Sequence record: FJ373894
DNA: 64,000 nucleotides
From: Shigella phage Ag3
Direction: 5' to 3' (one strand)
In this document: in pieces, positions 12,060-34,405 of the stretch
Position numbering within the stretch: the first letter of the stretch is position 1
How the letters are laid out: each line of letters opens with the position of its first letter
Notes under the pieces: generated by a model
Database searches by the model: none
Told to the model about the DNA's origin: nothing
Seen by the model: the letters and a program-made list of their open reading frames with translations, nothing else
Made by a program: the position numbers and the translations under genes

Positions 12060-12092
12060 AAATGAAAAGGGCGACCTTATGATAAGTCGCCC
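12060..12092 (-). terminator. rho-independent terminator
   Basis: Hairpin GGGCGAC-(9 nt loop)-GTCGCCC followed by TTTTCATTT on minus strand. Confidence 0.6.
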
Positions 12093-13060: not shown

Positions 13061-13378
13061 TTATTTTTGAAATCCGACAAAGTCCTGGGCAATCCCCCGA
13101 CAATACATCAGATCTTTCTTCGTTTGTGGGCTGTTATCAGCCGCAGTCAGCATCATGGGAAGATCCAGCGCATTCTCTATCTGATCAACACTGAACAGAT
13201 CAAGGCGCTTCAGCTCTCCCTCGAAGTCAGACAGGAGGATAGATGTATCTTTGTCGTCTGGATGGAATTGCTGATACGTCTCCATCCAGGCGGCGCAGGT
13301 ATTCAGTTTAGACGGTGGTGTGGCGTTTACACACCCGGCCATCAGTAACAGCAGGAGTAGGATTTTACCTTTCATCAC
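13061..13378 (-). CDS. putative lipoprotein
   Basis: N-terminus MMKGKILLLLLLMAGC with lipobox LMAGC. Confidence 0.55.
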   Translation of the reverse strand: MMKGKILLLLLLMAGCVNATPPSKLNTCAAWMETYQQFHPDDKDTSILLSDFEGELKRLDLFSVDQIENALDLPMMLTAADNSPQTKKDLMYCRGIAQDFVGFQK

Positions 13379-14061
13379 TCGTTCTCCTTCATCATATTGT
13401 CGCAGTCAACACGAGTCTGCTGGAGTTCGCGCGACATGCGAGGATCATCAAGGTTCACGCTCAGATTCGTGGCCAAGTCTTTCAGACCGTTCTGAACACG
13501 ATCCTCAAAATAATGGTCGTTCTCAACCAGCCAGGCTCTGAGGCCAAGAGCGCGAGTACGCCATTCCTTCTTCAGGACGCGATCAGAGGTCTGCGTAGCG
13601 CTGTATTCGAATACTTTGATGCACTGATTGCCATCGTTGATGAGGTTCAGGTGACGGCGGCCTATCTGCACACCCTTCTGTAATGCCGGAGAAGGGAGAG
13701 AACGGCACTGTCTGACTGTCATTCGGCCTTGGGTGCCCATACGCCCAGTCATGATAAGATCGCCAGCCTCCATGCCGCCTCGATTAAATTCATCGTCATT
13801 GAGGTAGCCCTTGAGGTTATAGGCTCCCTGTTTGTAACGGTTGAACTCAATCCCAGCATTGACCACAGCAGTGGAGACGTTGCCCGTGTTCCAGAGTTCA
13901 GCAAAGTTCTCTATGGAACCAGACTTGTCGATGGCGACTGCCTGGGAGAACCCAGCACAGTAGGAAAGATCAGACCACAGTTTGTCACCTGTGGAGTTCA
14001 GCTTGGCGGCGGCGGGTAATGCCAGACCAGCCAGCACGACCCCGAGGATTAAACGTTTCAT
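13375..14061 (-). CDS. secreted protein (signal peptide)
   Basis: ORF 13375..14154; start moved to 14061 (MKRLILGVVLAGLALPAAA signal peptide) with AGGAG RBS. Confidence 0.55.
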   Translation of the reverse strand: MKRLILGVVLAGLALPAAAKLNSTGDKLWSDLSYCAGFSQAVAIDKSGSIENFAELWNTGNVSTAVVNAGIEFNRYKQGAYNLKGYLNDDEFNRGGMEAGDLIMTGRMGTQGRMTVRQCRSLPSPALQKGVQIGRRHLNLINDGNQCIKVFEYSATQTSDRVLKKEWRTRALGLRAWLVENDHYFEDRVQNGLKDLATNLSVNLDDPRMSRELQQTRVDCDNMMKENE

Positions 14062-14140
14062 GGTGATTCTCCTTATTTCATTGGATGAAATGATAGGTGG
14101 CTCACCATGTTGAGTAAAGGGTTTCAATAAACTATCGTAT

Positions 14141-14590
14141 TCAGAAGCGAGCATCAGACACGGTTCTGAACTTCACACCCTTGAACTGCTTGGCGACCTT
14201 GACGAACTCCATCGCTGGCATGTCCACTTTGTAGACCTTGATGCGCTGGCGGTCATCCATGTTCAGAGCGGCCACATAGCGGTGTGAGCCGTCGACCACG
14301 TAATTGTCAGAAGACACCCAAACTCGACCCATGGGCTTCTTGTTCCGGATGTTCTTCATGATCTTCCAGACCTTCATCTTGTTGATTTCGTTCTGAGTGA
14401 GACGGAGGGATTTGATTGGAACCTGGCCAGCGTCGATAGTGATGCCAAGTTCCTCCAGGTAGTCGTGGAACGCCTGCTGCTTGTCATCGTCAATCTGCGG
14501 CATAGAAGAACGAGAAAGCCCGAGGTTTCCAACAGGAATCCTCAGGCCGTTGATAATGTTCAACCAGTCTATGAAGGAAGACATGAACAT
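14141..14590 (-). CDS. ParB-like nuclease domain protein (tentative)
   Basis: DGSHRYVAA motif resembling the ParB N-terminal/sulfiredoxin-like DGxHR motif; GAGGTG RBS. Confidence 0.4.
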   Translation of the reverse strand: MFMSSFIDWLNIINGLRIPVGNLGLSRSSMPQIDDDKQQAFHDYLEELGITIDAGQVPIKSLRLTQNEINKMKVWKIMKNIRNKKPMGRVWVSSDNYVVDGSHRYVAALNMDDRQRIKVYKVDMPAMEFVKVAKQFKGVKFRTVSDARF

Positions 14591-14623
14591 GAGATTCACC
14601 TCGGGATATGGATTATCCCTTAG

Positions 14624-14815
14624 TTAGCGCATCCAGCGATCCTTTCTCTCTTTCTCCTTGCGTTCGCGACGTTTCTGGTCGGATCGGAATAACCAATAGA
14701 AGAAGTTCCCACCCAAGATGAAAACCACCGCGATTATTACCAGGACACCCTTCACAATTTCCCAAACCAATTCTTTATCCAAATTATACCTCGTCTTCTT
14801 CAGGTCCACCATCAA
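14624..14815 (-). CDS. small membrane protein
   Basis: 63 aa; single hydrophobic helix followed by a basic tail. Confidence 0.4.
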   Translation of the reverse strand: MMVDLKKTRYNLDKELVWEIVKGVLVIIAVVFILGGNFFYWLFRSDQKRRERKEKERKDRWMR

Positions 14816-15071
14816 TCAGGATACGAGCGGTGTCGAAACCTTCCCCGCCTGTGTTCAACAGCTTGGTCAGATCATCAAGGGTGTCGACAGGACCAAGATC
14901 AGCCTTGCGCAGAATGAACTCGAGAAGGCCGTAGAGCGCTGTTTTGTACCGTTCATTGTCGATATCGTTTTTGACTTTCATTAAGTCAATAATCGCGTCT
15001 GTCTCCCTGAAACCTGTTTCAACTTCACTGCGCACCATAGAGAATAGAGCGAGTTCTTCGTCCCTTTTCAT
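14784..15071 (-). CDS. hypothetical acidic protein
   Basis: 95-codon ORF in array. Confidence 0.4.
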   Translation of the reverse strand: MKRDEELALFSMVRSEVETGFRETDAIIDLMKVKNDIDNERYKTALYGLLEFILRKADLGPVDTLDDLTKLLNTGGEGFDTARILIDGGPEEDEV

Positions 15072-15442
15072 AACGTACCCCCGACAGAGATCAAGAACTC
15101 TTCTTCAATGGTCGTGACAGGGCGGCGGTTGCGGGTTTCGATCATGAAGCCCCAGCCGCCGTCGGCGACGTTGCCAAAGGTCTTGACGCCAAAGGTCTTC
15201 GTCCTGTTGGAGCAGGCATAGAAGTCCAGGATGAACGGACTGCCCTGATTGTCGATCCCACGGTTTACGCCGTCCGATACGCAGCGCTCAATCATCTTCC
15301 CGTTCTTATACAGAACGAGGTCTTGGCCATACGCCTTGAAAGCATAAACGCCGTTGGTGGACACTCCGGTAATCACAGGAGGAGCGGAAACAACAGCGAA
15401 GGAAGCGCCCAGCAGGGCAACAGCGAGGATTAACTTTTTCAT
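15068..15442 (-). CDS. secreted protein (signal peptide)
   Basis: Start at 15442 (MKKLILAVALLGASFAVVSA) after GAGACTATATC motif. Confidence 0.55.
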   Translation of the reverse strand: MKKLILAVALLGASFAVVSAPPVITGVSTNGVYAFKAYGQDLVLYKNGKMIERCVSDGVNRGIDNQGSPFILDFYACSNRTKTFGVKTFGNVADGGWGFMIETRNRRPVTTIEEEFLISVGGTL

Positions 15443-15501: not shown

Positions 15502-15741
15502 TTAACTGATATGCTTCAGAAGAGCGAAGAGGATCGCGGCCTTGGCCTTTACCTTTCCCACGACGCCTGTCTCGACATCAACTTCTTCAGCAACCCACTC
15601 TTTGCCCTTCTTGCTGATGATAACGTCACGGCGCTGTGCGTAGACTTCTTTGGTCGCATACACACGGCGGAACCCCTTTGCGCGCAGCAAGCCCCAATTG
15701 CGATCAATCTCTACTGAAGTTTCGACCATTTTGTTCTTCAT
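15502..15741 (-). CDS. hypothetical basic protein
   Basis: Start at 15741 after AGGACTATATC; early promoter 15795-15822 upstream. Confidence 0.5.
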   Translation of the reverse strand: MKNKMVETSVEIDRNWGLLRAKGFRRVYATKEVYAQRRDVIISKKGKEWVAEEVDVETGVVGKVKAKAAILFALLKHIS

Positions 15742-15794
15742 GATATAGTCCTGCTTTCAAACAGGCGGGAACTATTCCCGCCCCAGAATTTGAA

Positions 15795-15822
15795 TTATAC
15801 GTGAGTTATTGAAGAAGTAAAC
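15795..15822 (-). promoter_or_regulatory. early promoter: -35 GTTTAC, 16 bp, -10 TATAAT
   Basis: Minus-strand GTTTAC-N16-TATAAT; T4-early/sigma70-like; upstream of gene starting 15741. Confidence 0.6.
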
Positions 15823-15837
15823 CGTTATTCAATATTC

Positions 15838-16122
15838 TTAACTTCTCTCCCAGATGTCTTCCAGGACATCACGCATATTTCTGAGTTCCGGAGTATCACC
15901 GAAGAAAGTTTCCATTTCCCCCTCTTCACCACCCGCCAACAACCAGAATGAGCTGTCAAGGTCTTCTGGGTCTTCTTCGTGGAAGAAACCCTGCTCAACC
16001 ATTTTGATGATAGAAGGTTCGGCGCGCTTGAAGTCCTTTTCTGTCACCACATCAGAGTAGTCGAACTGGTTGTCATAAGACATGATGGAAATGATCTTAT
16101 CAAATATTTCTTTGCTGGTCAT
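15838..16122 (-). CDS. hypothetical acidic protein
   Basis: Start at 16122 after AGGACTATATC; early promoter 16171-16199 upstream. Confidence 0.5.
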   Translation of the reverse strand: MTSKEIFDKIISIMSYDNQFDYSDVVTEKDFKRAEPSIIKMVEQGFFHEEDPEDLDSSFWLLAGGEEGEMETFFGDTPELRNMRDVLEDIWERS

Positions 16123-16592: not shown

Positions 16593-18794
16593 TTAAATTT
16601 TGATCTCTTTCTCTGCCAGTTCGGCAGTGACCTTGTACTTCACACCATCCACTTCAACTTCCATGGTGGACTCTTCCAGGTCGAGGTCGGTGAACCAGCC
16701 GTGGCCAGCAACGATACCATACACCACTTTAGACAGCGTCTTGTTCAGGGCGCGGACTTCGGTGATGGCCGCCTTGGCAGCAGCGTCGATCCAGTTTTCG
16801 ATCAGCTGTTTCTGTACGGCTTCAGGCACGGCAGTGATCGCAGGAGACTTCACGAATGCCTCGTACTCTTTCAGGGCATTGGCGATGAACAAGTCACCCG
16901 CATTGAGTTTCTTGTTCTCGGCAATCTTTTTCTGTACTGCCGCGATGCTAGGCAGAGAAGACGCCCCAGCGATCTTAACGTTCAGCTCACGGCTCATGTA
17001 GACATCCGTGGAGTCCTTCAGTTCGGTCTTCGGTGAGAAGCCGTAATCGCGGATGCCGTAGGAGGACAGGAACTCGGCCGCCTCAGCGCCGTACTGTACT
17101 GCCAGGCCTTTGGCGTTGCCTTTGCCAACCAGTTCATCACGGAAGAACTTCAGCACCTTCTGCTTGCCTTTCAGGGCTTCCAGACGGACGTTGTCAGCAA
17201 AGAACTGAGCAGCACTGATGTTCTTGACCATGGCGCGGTTGACCAGCGGTACGCTTTCCAGGTTCAGGACAAACACTTCCGGACCACCAAACACATGGAC
17301 GCCCATCTGACACAGATTGGTTACAACTTCAACATCAGCCCTGAACGGCAGAGTCTTCACGTTGATGATGCCGTCTTTGACGATGGTGTAGTTGCGCCAC
17401 TGGAAAGTATCCAGTTCTTCAGGCAGACCGAACTTCTTCTGCACGAACTCCGGAATCGCCACAGTGCCGTGTTGGACAGTGCGTACACTGATATTAGGGC
17501 GTTCGGAGTTATAGACCAAATCGCTGATTGGCACAACACCCAGATCGTTGGTAGGTTCGAACGTCGGGTTCCACTCTTCGTGCTCGGCCAGCTTGAGAGC
17601 CAGGGCTTTGCGCTCTTCTTTGGACTCGGCGTTCGCGATCTGTTCTGCCAGCTTGTCTTCGGTATCGTCCAGTTTCTGAGCCGTACCGCGACCGATGCTC
17701 TTGTAGGAGAACATAGGATGTTTGGTAGCAACACACACGCCAGCTTCAGCCAGATACGTCAGCACGTCAACGACGGTCGTCGCATCTTCAGCTGGAACCA
17801 GGTCATAGTCAATACCGTCAACGCCGCGCAGCTGGTCATCAACGATGGCCTGGGTCAGATCAACTTTGATGTTGGAGTAGTCCTGCTTGGTGAAGCAGTT
17901 GCTGTACTGTTTGATGAAGCGAACGTCACCAGTTTTCTTCAGTGCAGCCCACACCAGGTCTGCGTCCATGATGTGTACGCCGTAGAACGCCAGCACGTAT
18001 GCCGCCTGGATGTCCGCCAGTGCATCAAGCTGGTCGATCATGTTAGGATTGACGACCCACAGCTTCGTGACGCTCTCAGGGATGCTCACGTGGCCGATAG
18101 GATGGTCTTCATCCGGCTGTACCGCCAGCACAGTTGCTACGCCGTTTTCAACGTAGATGGCATGATCATACAGCAACGGAACATCAACAACCACTTTCGG
18201 CACCGAGGACTTCAGTACGTTTTCCAGCTCGGTCTGATATTCGGTCTGGCCTTCGGCGAACACGTGAGTCGCGCCGGAACGTTCAGACATCAGAGCCAGC
18301 AGTTCGCGGTTGCAGTACCAGCCGTATTCGATGAATGTGACGTTGTCGAAAGCGGAAGGAAGTTTTTCGGCGGTCTCCAGGATCTCATTGGAGCGCCAGC
18401 AGTTGTCATAACCATCGGTCATGAACGCCAGGTTGTTGACATAGCCAGGCTTCTTCAGACTACGAGCGGTGTCTACAGCCAGACCCAGAGGTTCCACGAA
18501 TCCAGTGCATCCGGACGGTTGTAGGAAGCGGTCGATCAGTTTGTTCAGCTCGCTCAGGTCAGATGCTGCACTAACCTGACGGCCAGCGAACACAGTACCA
18601 AAGTCGCCACGGGATGAGAAATACAGAACACTCACAGTGTCTTCCGGCTTCACCAGAGAAGGCAGGTTCTCCTTCAGATGCTTACGGACTTCAGGGAGCG
18701 CACGGTACATCGAATAAGAGATGTCCACAACGATTACATGGTTGGACGGGGCAGCAGTCGCAACCGCATTCTTAAATTCTAATGATTCAATCAT
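16593..18794 (-). CDS. von Willebrand factor A (VWA) domain protein
   Basis: VIVVDISYSM and FMTDGYDN motifs at N-terminus typical of VWA domains; start moved to ATG at 18794. Confidence 0.6.
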   Translation of the reverse strand: MIESLEFKNAVATAAPSNHVIVVDISYSMYRALPEVRKHLKENLPSLVKPEDTVSVLYFSSRGDFGTVFAGRQVSAASDLSELNKLIDRFLQPSGCTGFVEPLGLAVDTARSLKKPGYVNNLAFMTDGYDNCWRSNEILETAEKLPSAFDNVTFIEYGWYCNRELLALMSERSGATHVFAEGQTEYQTELENVLKSSVPKVVVDVPLLYDHAIYVENGVATVLAVQPDEDHPIGHVSIPESVTKLWVVNPNMIDQLDALADIQAAYVLAFYGVHIMDADLVWAALKKTGDVRFIKQYSNCFTKQDYSNIKVDLTQAIVDDQLRGVDGIDYDLVPAEDATTVVDVLTYLAEAGVCVATKHPMFSYKSIGRGTAQKLDDTEDKLAEQIANAESKEERKALALKLAEHEEWNPTFEPTNDLGVVPISDLVYNSERPNISVRTVQHGTVAIPEFVQKKFGLPEELDTFQWRNYTIVKDGIINVKTLPFRADVEVVTNLCQMGVHVFGGPEVFVLNLESVPLVNRAMVKNISAAQFFADNVRLEALKGKQKVLKFFRDELVGKGNAKGLAVQYGAEAAEFLSSYGIRDYGFSPKTELKDSTDVYMSRELNVKIAGASSLPSIAAVQKKIAENKKLNAGDLFIANALKEYEAFVKSPAITAVPEAVQKQLIENWIDAAAKAAITEVRALNKTLSKVVYGIVAGHGWFTDLDLEESTMEVEVDGVKYKVTAELAEKEIKI

Positions 18795-18957
18795 CGTTAT
18801 TGCCTTCTTCAGGGTTGTCTTCGGCCTCACCTTCCGGCTTGACCAGCATGTGTTCCAGGAAATCGCGATTGAGTTCAATCTGACTCATCAGCGTTTCCGA
18901 TGGGCTAAAGCGGCGGTCGAGGTTGTCGACGCCCGCACGTTCAAATGGTTTGGCCAT
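18787..18957 (-). CDS. hypothetical small acidic protein
   Basis: Internal start of ORF 18787..19014; position only. Confidence 0.3.
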   Translation of the reverse strand: MAKPFERAGVDNLDRRFSPSETLMSQIELNRDFLEHMLVKPEGEAEDNPEEGNNDD

Positions 18958-33725: not shown

Positions 33726-33754
33726 AATAGCACCTTTTGCTGTGGAGATATTTT

Positions 33755-34405
33755 GTGACCCTGATGCGCGGGATCAGTAGATTGTTGTTGGCATGCGCGA
33801 TGCTCTTGCTTACGAGCTGTCGCATCTTTGTCACGCCAATAATTTCTGTTTCCGAACTCTGGAACCCAGAAGTACGCACCGTACCCGTGACGTTGTCGGC
33901 CAGTGTTCCTACTTGTAACAAGGGTATGCTGGACATCATCGTGCAAGAGTTCCAGACCTTTCAGAAGCTCGTGCCTTTGGGTTGCTTCGAGGAGAACACG
34001 AGCACCCTCAAGCCATACTGGAAGACCACGATTCCCCTCCTGCGTCGTGGCGATGAAGGGAAGATTCCATACCTATCAGCAAGTATTTATTACTCTCAGA
34101 ACAACAGCATCATCATCACTTTTAATCCATCATTCTACGCCAAGCTGAAGCAACACATGGTTGGGCGACTGAGTGAAACGTCGGATATAATCGTGACGTT
34201 CAAGATCATGAATGACTCAGACAAGCCAGTACGAATCGCAACTCAGGGTGTGTTTGTCAACAACGATGCTGTTGGGAATGAGATGAACATCTTCGAAGTT
34301 AACCCAGGGGGGACGATCTGGATTAGACTGAGTAATGTGGGTGTGAACTCCCTACTGTTGGATGGCATCGAACCAGTGGGAGTTCTTCCGGCGCGGGAGC
34401 GCTGA
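33755..34405 (+). CDS. putative lipoprotein (plus strand)
   Basis: GTG 33755 or ATG 33764 with GGAG RBS; MRGISRLLLACAMLLLTSC signal with lipobox. Confidence 0.5.
   Translation: MTLMRGISRLLLACAMLLLTSCRIFVTPIISVSELWNPEVRTVPVTLSASVPTCNKGMLDIIVQEFQTFQKLVPLGCFEENTSTLKPYWKTTIPLLRRGDEGKIPYLSASIYYSQNNSIIITFNPSFYAKLKQHMVGRLSETSDIIVTFKIMNDSDKPVRIATQGVFVNNDAVGNEMNIFEVNPGGTIWIRLSNVGVNSLLLDGIEPVGVLPARER

Follow-up and report, generated by a model that had tools for sequence, protein, structure and literature searches.

A 'spanin' label that is most likely a false positive, and three possibly unrelated components, in a conserved gene block of Shigella phage Ag3

What do the exported proteins encoded amid the replication genes of Shigella phage Ag3 do, and do they belong together? 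The question is raised by positions 13061-15442 of a 64 000 nucleotide (nt) stretch of this phage (sequence record FJ373894), analysed here at its full length and called the window, in which six minus-strand genes encode, in the order of transcription, proteins of 124, 95, 52/63, 149, 228 and 104 amino acids (aa). The original prediction for this locus had read a cluster of early-expressed envelope proteins interleaved with a ParB-like nuclease-domain protein, an interpretation that our analysis partly supports; absent from it were the acidic 95-aa gene and the public annotation of the 228- and 104-aa proteins as i-spanin and o-spanin. In our view, which we hold somewhat likelier to be right than wrong, the region would be a piece of a conserved early/middle-gene backbone with three unrelated components, i.e. 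a periplasmic protein pair (228 and 104 aa) that would not be a spanin, a 149-aa protein with the ParB/sulfiredoxin (ParB/Srx) fold, and a set of lineage-variable accessories, namely genes for proteins of 124 aa (secreted), 95 aa (acidic) and 52 aa (a membrane protein with N-out/C-in topology).

Judging from its sequence, the window belongs to an Agtrevirus-like phage of the Ackermannviridae: over the 4.6 kb surrounding the finding, nucleotide identity to phages of this family is 90-96 %, the best matches being those to P46FS4 of Salmonella and ChubbyThor of Shigella (Agtrevirus; ~95 % for both), followed by Marshall, Maynard, Enterobacter phage EspM4VN and others. The exported pair and the ParB/Srx-fold protein are encoded by three neighbouring genes (here and below, the arrow marks a predicted or possible cleavage site):

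14141..14590, minus strand: stand-alone 149-aa ParB/sulfiredoxin-fold protein (predicted fold), its start set at the ATG used by relatives
13375..14061, minus strand: predicted Sec-exported protein of 228 aa, public label 'i-spanin', phrog_4260, with a putative signal peptide made of MKR, LILGVVLAGLAL and PAAA↓K
13061..13375, minus strand: predicted exported protein of 104 aa, public label 'o-spanin / Rz-like spanin', phrog_3843, with the lipobox LLMAG↓C

The true start of the 228-aa gene is the ATG at 14061, behind AAGGAG, and the 259-aa open reading frame (ORF) reaching to 14154 is a mere upstream in-frame extension. The N-terminus of the protein, MKRLILGVVLAGLALPAAA↓K, consists of MKR, a hydrophobic core of 12 residues (16 uncharged residues in all) and PAAA↓K. 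Within the family P16, A17 and A19 are invariant (P-A-x-A19↓K20) and the hydrophobic core is variable, while distant homologues end their signal region in STANA↓G, PVHA↓R, SAWS↓E or HASA↓A. The record of phage LIMEstone1 describes its orthologue as having a 'putative signal peptide and coiled coil'; the authors of that record ran SignalP, TMHMM and COILS and noted a 'putative signal peptide' for both proteins of the pair (PMC3296691). Four Cys residues are invariant (C35/C119 and C147/C220) and the N-terminal domain is kept in all genera, the Miltonvirus orthologues being without the whole helical C-terminal half. A hidden Markov model search of 1.84 billion representatives gave only 11 hits for this family, all of them phage-like or fragments; it is therefore an orphan from which no function can be transferred.

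The lipoprotein with an LMAGC lipobox that the original prediction had named is indeed present, as the 104-aa ORF at 13061-13375 (ATG) or 13378 (GTG), which begins with MKGKILLLLLLMAG↓CVNATPP and fits the PROSITE-type lipobox pattern, Val being the +2 residue. This anchor is a property of a few close relatives. Among 37 full-length clusters at 90 % identity a lipobox was found in six, i.e. those closest to the window, was borderline in two and was lacking in 29, and it occurs in 49 of the 205 member sequences. The P0066 copy, 96 % identical, has Ser at the position of the lipobox Cys; that of LIMEstone1 shares 94 % identity in the mature domain, yet starts with MARKIVLLLLLAVVVGYVAGAYA↓AP and has no lipobox; the copies of PhaxI, Taipeivirus, Miltonvirus and Bue1 carry plain signal peptides without lipobox, and Maynard has the lipobox form. 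What is kept throughout the family, including the window (VNA↓TP), is a site of the signal-peptidase I type, with a small residue in position -3 and Ala, without exception, in position -1 before xP, together with the invariant Cys27 and Cys92.

A search of the whole ChubbyThor genome, covering all start codons in six frames, returned two credible lipoproteins, one being the 104-aa orthologue. The other, ChubbyThor gp179 (129858-130499) and its window counterpart at 33737-34405 on the plus strand, is a protein of 213-222 aa with the lipobox LLTS↓C-R and no C-terminal transmembrane domain (TMD), whose gene stands alone on the opposite strand and adjoins a tail-completion gene. Different lipoproteins are encoded close to the pair in two other lineages: Bue1 (locus L004, 4403-5182) has one of 259 aa (LLAG↓C) a few genes downstream of the pair, and the Miltonvirus phages of Serratia (L005, 4077-4352; L006, 4456-4731) have one of 91 aa (LAS↓C) behind a transmembrane (TM) peptide of 37-38 aa. 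These downstream lipoproteins could be alternative envelope factors.

The stop codon of the 228-aa gene overlaps the start of the 104-aa gene (GTGATGA), and an overlap of 1-4 nt was found in all genera examined. Signals of the cleavable Sec type, invariant Cys pairs and a gene overlap in every genus together point to co-translated periplasmic partners oxidised by DsbA. Despite similar CxxF/W ... CR motifs, the two proteins are not detectable paralogues (hhalign probability 13 %). The pair occurs only in phages of Enterobacterales; the Vibrio genus Campanilevirus does not have it but keeps the ParB-like gene. Up to E = 10, profiles of the two families picked up nothing relevant among the PDB sequences, none of the six proteins of the region scored above threshold in Pfam, NCBIfam or PADLOC, and a literature search for Ackermannviridae transcriptomes and lysis-gene experiments returned nothing usable, and for these genes nothing beyond annotation. 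In the mechanism that we propose, the 228- and 104-aa proteins would leave the cytoplasm through Sec, undergo processing and oxidation to periplasmic proteins with disulfide bonds, and probably work together as a complex in the infected cell's periplasm. In the lineage of the window the small subunit would have acquired a lipobox in addition, by which it may be tethered to the outer membrane. By analogy, we infer that the likeliest role of the pair would be an envelope-level one exerted from the periplasm, i.e. superinfection exclusion or control of lysis timing.

The neighbouring 149-aa protein had been likened to ParB/sulfiredoxin-like nucleases; the fold stands, and the word 'nuclease' is the name of the family only. 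An AlphaFold2 model (pLDDT 72) matched in Foldseek about 30 top PDB entries that were all ParB-N, Noc, Srx or PadC (E to 3e-4, probability 1.0), among them pNOB8 ParB-N, Noc, human and plant sulfiredoxin, CTP-bound ParB and PadC, and the BFVD matches were phage ParB/Sulfiredoxin proteins, both solo and fused. On the strength of this model, the assignment to the ParB/Srx fold is sound. The protein shares the alpha/beta fold of the superfamily (ParB-N CTPases, Noc, sulfiredoxin and Osa), and its DGSHR Arg loop lies at the place of GERRxRA in ParB and GCHR in Srx. Across 19 sequences, the least similar at 56 % identity, D103-G-S-H-R107 does not vary, and neither does the LRLTQNE segment preceding it with its Gln. 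It differs from these relatives in being only 149 aa long, ending ~40 residues past the GxxR loop without a helix-turn-helix or dimerisation domain, in lacking a ParA gene nearby, and in possessing an invariant N-terminal segment of its own (IPVGNLGLSRSSMPQID). It also stays below all Pfam thresholds: no ParB match was obtained in Pfam or NCBIfam at E up to 0.1 (PF02195 ParBc not being reached), nor did the family profile match any PDB sequence at E up to 1, and among PHROGs there is a weak match to phrog_1033, 'ParB-like partition protein' (E = 1.7e-4).

Homologues of the 149-aa protein occur in 430 phage records far beyond Ackermannviridae, a far wider spread than that of the exported genes, and those of Vibrio, Aeromonas, Stenotrophomonas, Ralstonia and Pseudomonas phages come without the exported pair. 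Moreover, the orthologue was detected in two virion proteomes, i.e. that of LIMEstone1 (17.31 kDa, 5 peptides, 35.6 % coverage; PMC3296691), whose GenBank note reads 'confirmed structural protein', and that of Sajous1 (11 spectra). The protein is therefore probably packaged in virions and unrelated to export, and its placement as a member interleaved in an envelope module was not borne out. Solo phage ParB/Srx domains, or those within packaged 'polyvalent' proteins, are described as acting early in infection as NTP-dependent enzymes or DNases (NTP, nucleoside triphosphate; Iyer et al. 2017, PMC5512222), a mechanism that may by analogy extend to the 149-aa protein. It would be synthesised in the cytoplasm, packaged into the virion and delivered to, or active in, the newly infected cell, most likely as a nucleotide-binding or -hydrolysing and possibly DNA-nicking protein using the intact nucleotide/phosphate-binding motif DGSHR, much as other phages have ParB domains of the solo and the 'polyvalent-protein' kind. 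The family occurs solo and inside giant phage proteins, and it shares its association with virions with DdrB of P1; no sequence link to DdrB was detected, P1 not being among the tblastn matches listed and no direct alignment having been made. Compared with DdrB-like residues, the family has an Asp before GSHR (VVD-GSHR), and the next aromatic residue is Tyr or Phe, hence not invariant. The ParB/Srx domain is also contained in the phrog_2859 and phrog_11358 profiles.

Two further observations concern packaged proteins. A 4,947-aa protein of Pseudomonas phage vB_PaeM_USP_18 (locus L015, 1131-7333) holds a homologous ParB/Srx domain at about residues 790-900, has a sub-threshold N6-DNA-methylase match as well, and resembles a DarB-type polyvalent virion protein. 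The vWA-domain protein of 761 aa encoded at 16593-18878 of the window was detected in LIMEstone1 virions (6 peptides) and also in Sajous1, and the block may thus encode several packaged or ejected proteins.

If the pair is periplasmic, its public label needs to be accounted for. The names i-spanin and o-spanin occur in Marshall, ChubbyThor, several other records and UniRef, and PHROG 3843, matched at E = 1e-54, is called 'Rz-like spanin'. Were this annotation right, the 228-aa protein would be an uncleaved i-spanin of the inner membrane and the 104-aa protein an o-spanin of the outer membrane, and together they would bridge the periplasm and, in the final stage of lysis, disrupt the outer membrane or fuse it. 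As in two-component spanins, e.g. Rz/Rz1 of lambda and PseT.3/PseT.2 of T4, the two genes are adjacent and overlapping and their products envelope-targeted, the second protein has a lipobox in this lineage (with Val at +2 in the window copy), and periplasmic Cys residues are found in both exported domains, as in most spanins. The genes also lie away from the endolysin gene, which is ~20 kb distant, and T4-like phages likewise hold their spanin genes apart from those of holin and endolysin. In the ChubbyThor genome, the 104-aa orthologue is the only lipoprotein beside a protein with a hydrophobic N-terminus. The Marshall pair is even listed in the spanin database (SpaninDB; Kongari et al. 2018), as a 'Singleton' and as the longest of 528 two-component systems with a combined periplasmic length of 300 aa; however, the call is flagged there as taken on trust and marked doubtful, and the same authors count as spanin-less the ten sister phages PhaxI, CBA120, ECML-4, SJ2, SJ3, Maynard, Vi01, SFP10, phiSboM-AG3 and Dickeya phage RC-2014; homologues from the gene block were found in at least PhaxI, ECML-4, CBA120, Maynard and SFP10. 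Apart from the overlapping genes and the window's own lipobox, the anchoring features of a spanin appear to be missing, i.e. a lipoprotein signal conserved in the family, which is absent from most clusters and all distant genera while the mature domain is conserved, and an uncleaved N-terminal TMD in the 'i-spanin', where a hydrophobic core of 12-16 residues ends in the invariant PAxA↓K. Uncharged N-terminal runs measure 17-26 residues in seven bona fide i-spanins from SpaninDB, and a short signal peptide of cleavable type thus takes the place of the ~20-residue signal anchor, in agreement with the SignalP-based notes on LIMEstone1. In further contrast to spanins, the Miltonvirus orthologues are of half size. 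On a mainly helical, coiled-coil periplasmic domain the evidence is divided: for the large Marshall protein SpaninDB gives little helix (35 %, with 12 % strand; 56 % helix in the small one) and 0 Pepcoil coiled-coil segments, which would speak against a spanin, whereas a COILS coiled coil is noted for LIMEstone1. Since the membrane anchors needed by a spanin are not conserved, the label is most likely a false positive propagated from one record, as far as these comparisons of sequences can tell, and we regard it as improbable, if conceivable with a non-canonical mode of anchoring, that the public annotation is right in this lineage.

A function of the exported proteins as early superinfection-exclusion factors, either as a Spackle-like inhibitor of the tail lysozyme or as a receptor-masking lipoprotein of the Llp/Cor kind, overlaps with the periplasmic reading, being a more specific version of it, and seems to us unlikely in that specific form, if less so than the spanin. 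Spackle (gp61.3) and RI of T4 are early periplasmic phage proteins. Like these, the pair is small, Sec-dependent, disulfide-containing and predicted to be largely helical (56 % for the small protein), and is encoded, within a predicted early unit, among early/replication genes of a myovirus related to T4; in size and topology it is comparable to Spackle of T4 and Llp of T5. Further points in favour are the gp5-like tail lysozyme of the phage family and the restriction of the pair to Enterobacterales phages, with its absence from Campanilevirus. However, no sequence similarity to Spackle or RI is detectable, as the searches of all PDB sequences, any deposited T4 Spackle chain included, and of PADLOC, Pfam and NCBIfam were all negative, and the pair consists of two coupled subunits, of which one is large (209 aa when mature). 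T5 Llp and phi80 Cor resemble the window's copy as small lipoproteins directed to the outer membrane, with a disulfide and from a lytic phage; yet the lipid anchor on which an Llp-like mechanism depends is not a conserved trait of the family, and there is neither linkage to receptor-binding protein genes nor homology. A closer tie between the components would exist if the ParB/Srx protein and the exported pair formed one functional module, e.g. an injected or cytoplasmic nuclease or NTPase with envelope partners acting during DNA entry or exit, which would explain why the triad is kept in six genera. In fact, a local tblastn of the window proteins against the same region in nine phages of six genera showed ParB/Srx, 228-aa and 104-aa genes as a fixed adjacent triad in Agtrevirus, Kuttervirus, Limestonevirus, Taipeivirus, Miltonvirus and Nezavisimistyvirus, with identities to the most distant genera of 64-69 % for the ParB-like, 27-34 % for the 228-aa and 34-50 % for the 104-aa protein. 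The triad of Marshall (Kuttervirus) is 94-98 % identical to that of the Agtrevirus-like window (13061-14590), while its flanking genes reach 72-81 %, indicating that the three genes moved together; in PhaxI, another Kuttervirus, triad identity to the window is 71-90 %, which suggests exchange of the triad between genera by recombination. Nevertheless, gene order is conserved over the whole family backbone (PMC3296691), making adjacency weak evidence, the ParB/Srx homologues of the five phage groups named above do without the pair, and the compartments differ, i.e. virion or cytoplasm and periplasm. In ChubbyThor, gp150, a NUMOD3 homing-endonuclease gene (locus L001, 3648-4478), is inserted without apparent harm exactly in the 79 nt spacer between the ParB/Srx and 228-aa genes (window ~14062-14140), an insertion lacking in the window and the other relatives. 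We consider such a module very doubtful, and see similarly little chance that the conserved, mostly anchor-less pair serves the officially 'spanin-less' Ackermannviridae at the envelope as a novel system, be it a soluble, anchor-free two-protein one for outer-membrane disruption or a two-subunit exclusion or lysis-timing device unique to this family.

Several points weigh against the periplasmic, three-component reading that we favour. The periplasmic role is a guess by analogy, with no homologue of known function, and the AlphaFold2 model of the 228-aa protein, built with 17 homologues, was unusable (pLDDT 39) and gives no structural handle. TMHMM-type tools evidently call the N-terminus of this protein a TM helix, and its cleavage is read from sequence rules and from the annotation of another group. 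With its good lipobox, the pair of the window's lineage formally passes a topological spanin screen, and the whole-genome scan of ChubbyThor yielded no better spanin candidate. The virion detection of the ParB/Srx protein comes with modest peptide counts, for which contamination is possible, and the adjacency of the three components may reflect a shared function after all.

The third component and the signals that appear to delimit the block are as follows:

15794..15821, minus strand: sigma70-like promoter match (TTTACT-16-TATAAT, 10/12; a consensus match only), located upstream of the 79-aa gene, at which the unit may start
15502..15741, minus strand: conserved 79-aa backbone gene, phrog_804, first gene of the predicted unit
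15068..15442, minus strand: predicted exported protein of 124 aa, phrog_5474, with two Cys and the N-terminal segment MKKLILAVALLGASFAVVSA followed by PP; lineage-variable
14784..15071, minus strand: acidic 95-aa cytoplasmic protein, phrog_4458; lineage-variable
14624..14782, minus strand (63-aa ORF to 14815): predicted single-pass membrane protein of 52 aa, phrog_14464 'membrane protein', TM segment VLVIIAVVFILGGNFFYWLF
14090..14118, minus strand: weaker sigma70-like match (TTTACT-17-TATCAT, 9/12; a consensus match only) just upstream of the 228-aa gene
12069..12092, minus strand: hairpin resembling a strong intrinsic terminator (stem of 9 bp with 6 GC pairs, plus a T-run), located behind the next downstream gene, at which the unit may end

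Of the two signal-peptide proteins that had been predicted, both are present, i.e. the 228-aa protein, with its real start at 14061, and the 124-aa protein (15068-15442), whose N-terminus reads MKKLILAVALLGASFAVVSAPP. The Taipeivirus orthologue of the latter has a classic signal peptide (...FTAQA↓D). In the window, the obvious site in the N-terminal region (15382-15442), VSA↓PP, has Pro at +1. Pro at +1 blocks cleavage by signal peptidase; processing may instead take place at SFA↓V, or the protein may remain anchored. The 95-aa gene is coupled to the 124-aa gene, its ATGA overlapping the stop codon. The single-TM protein of 63 aa was likewise recovered (14624-14815), and relatives annotate a 52-aa form from a TTG start at 14782, after GAGG, for which N-out/C-in topology is predicted because the C-tail is strongly basic (positive-inside rule). 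It has only weak, sub-threshold Pfam matches, including one to a holin family at E = 0.06 that we do not credit. The idea that it might be the missing holin of the family was rejected, as the gene is absent from most genera. Outside the finding, a 204-aa ORF at 1573-2187 of the window, on the minus strand, also has a signal-peptide-like N-terminus (MTMTTLKAMALSVTFTIASGNVHA↓SQ).

In the tblastn comparison, the 124-, 95- and 52-aa genes behave as accessories, none of the three being found in PhaxI, Miltonvirus or Bue1, and the 52-aa gene is missing also from ChubbyThor, LIMEstone1 and Taipeivirus. With three of the six genes being lineage-variable, the proposed 'cluster' is largely backbone synteny, even though every feature listed for it is real. 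A crude scan for signal or TM segments marked nine of the ~77 window genes, and in random placements a run of six genes with at least four marked ones arose in 5 % of cases, or in 26 % if the translationally coupled pair was counted as one unit. Clustering of exported genes beyond chance is hence marginal. Between the acyl carrier protein and 79-aa genes lies an acidic 94-aa ORF (15838-16122, minus strand) without a PHROG match and with no tblastn counterpart in any of the nine related loci, and in P46FS4, LIMEstone1 and EspM4VN denV is found between the 79-aa and 124-aa genes, marking the area as a variable insertion hotspot.

All genes from ~11 to 19 kb of the window are carried by the minus strand, with genes for the vWA-domain protein and an acyl carrier protein upstream of the region, those for a DNA-binding protein and a helicase downstream, and replication genes flanking it on both sides. 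The promoter match at 15821-15794 and the terminator-like hairpin at 12092-12069 bracket the gene set, and the LIMEstone1 record annotates a putative early promoter at the position equivalent to window 15794..15821. The region is thus probably one transcription unit of the sigma70 type, with which the early expression assumed in the original prediction is consistent. The T4-type late promoter TATAAATA has a single match in the 64 kb, distant from these genes.

The genes described here are no new discovery, being already in GenBank in hundreds of Ackermannviridae genomes. The analysis is of use mainly in correcting the 'i-spanin / Rz-like spanin' label, which traces to one unverified student annotation of phage Marshall, has spread through PHROG 3843, RefSeq and UniRef, and conflicts with most sequences of the family as well as with the spanin database's own spanin-less listing of sister phages. 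Ackermannviridae include many therapeutic and biocontrol candidates against Salmonella, Escherichia coli O157, Klebsiella and Dickeya, and for this family the questions are raised by what means the outer membrane is opened at lysis and which task the conserved periplasmic pair performs, while in the solo ParB/Srx protein associated with virions there is a tractable candidate for an effector that is injected and depends on nucleotides.

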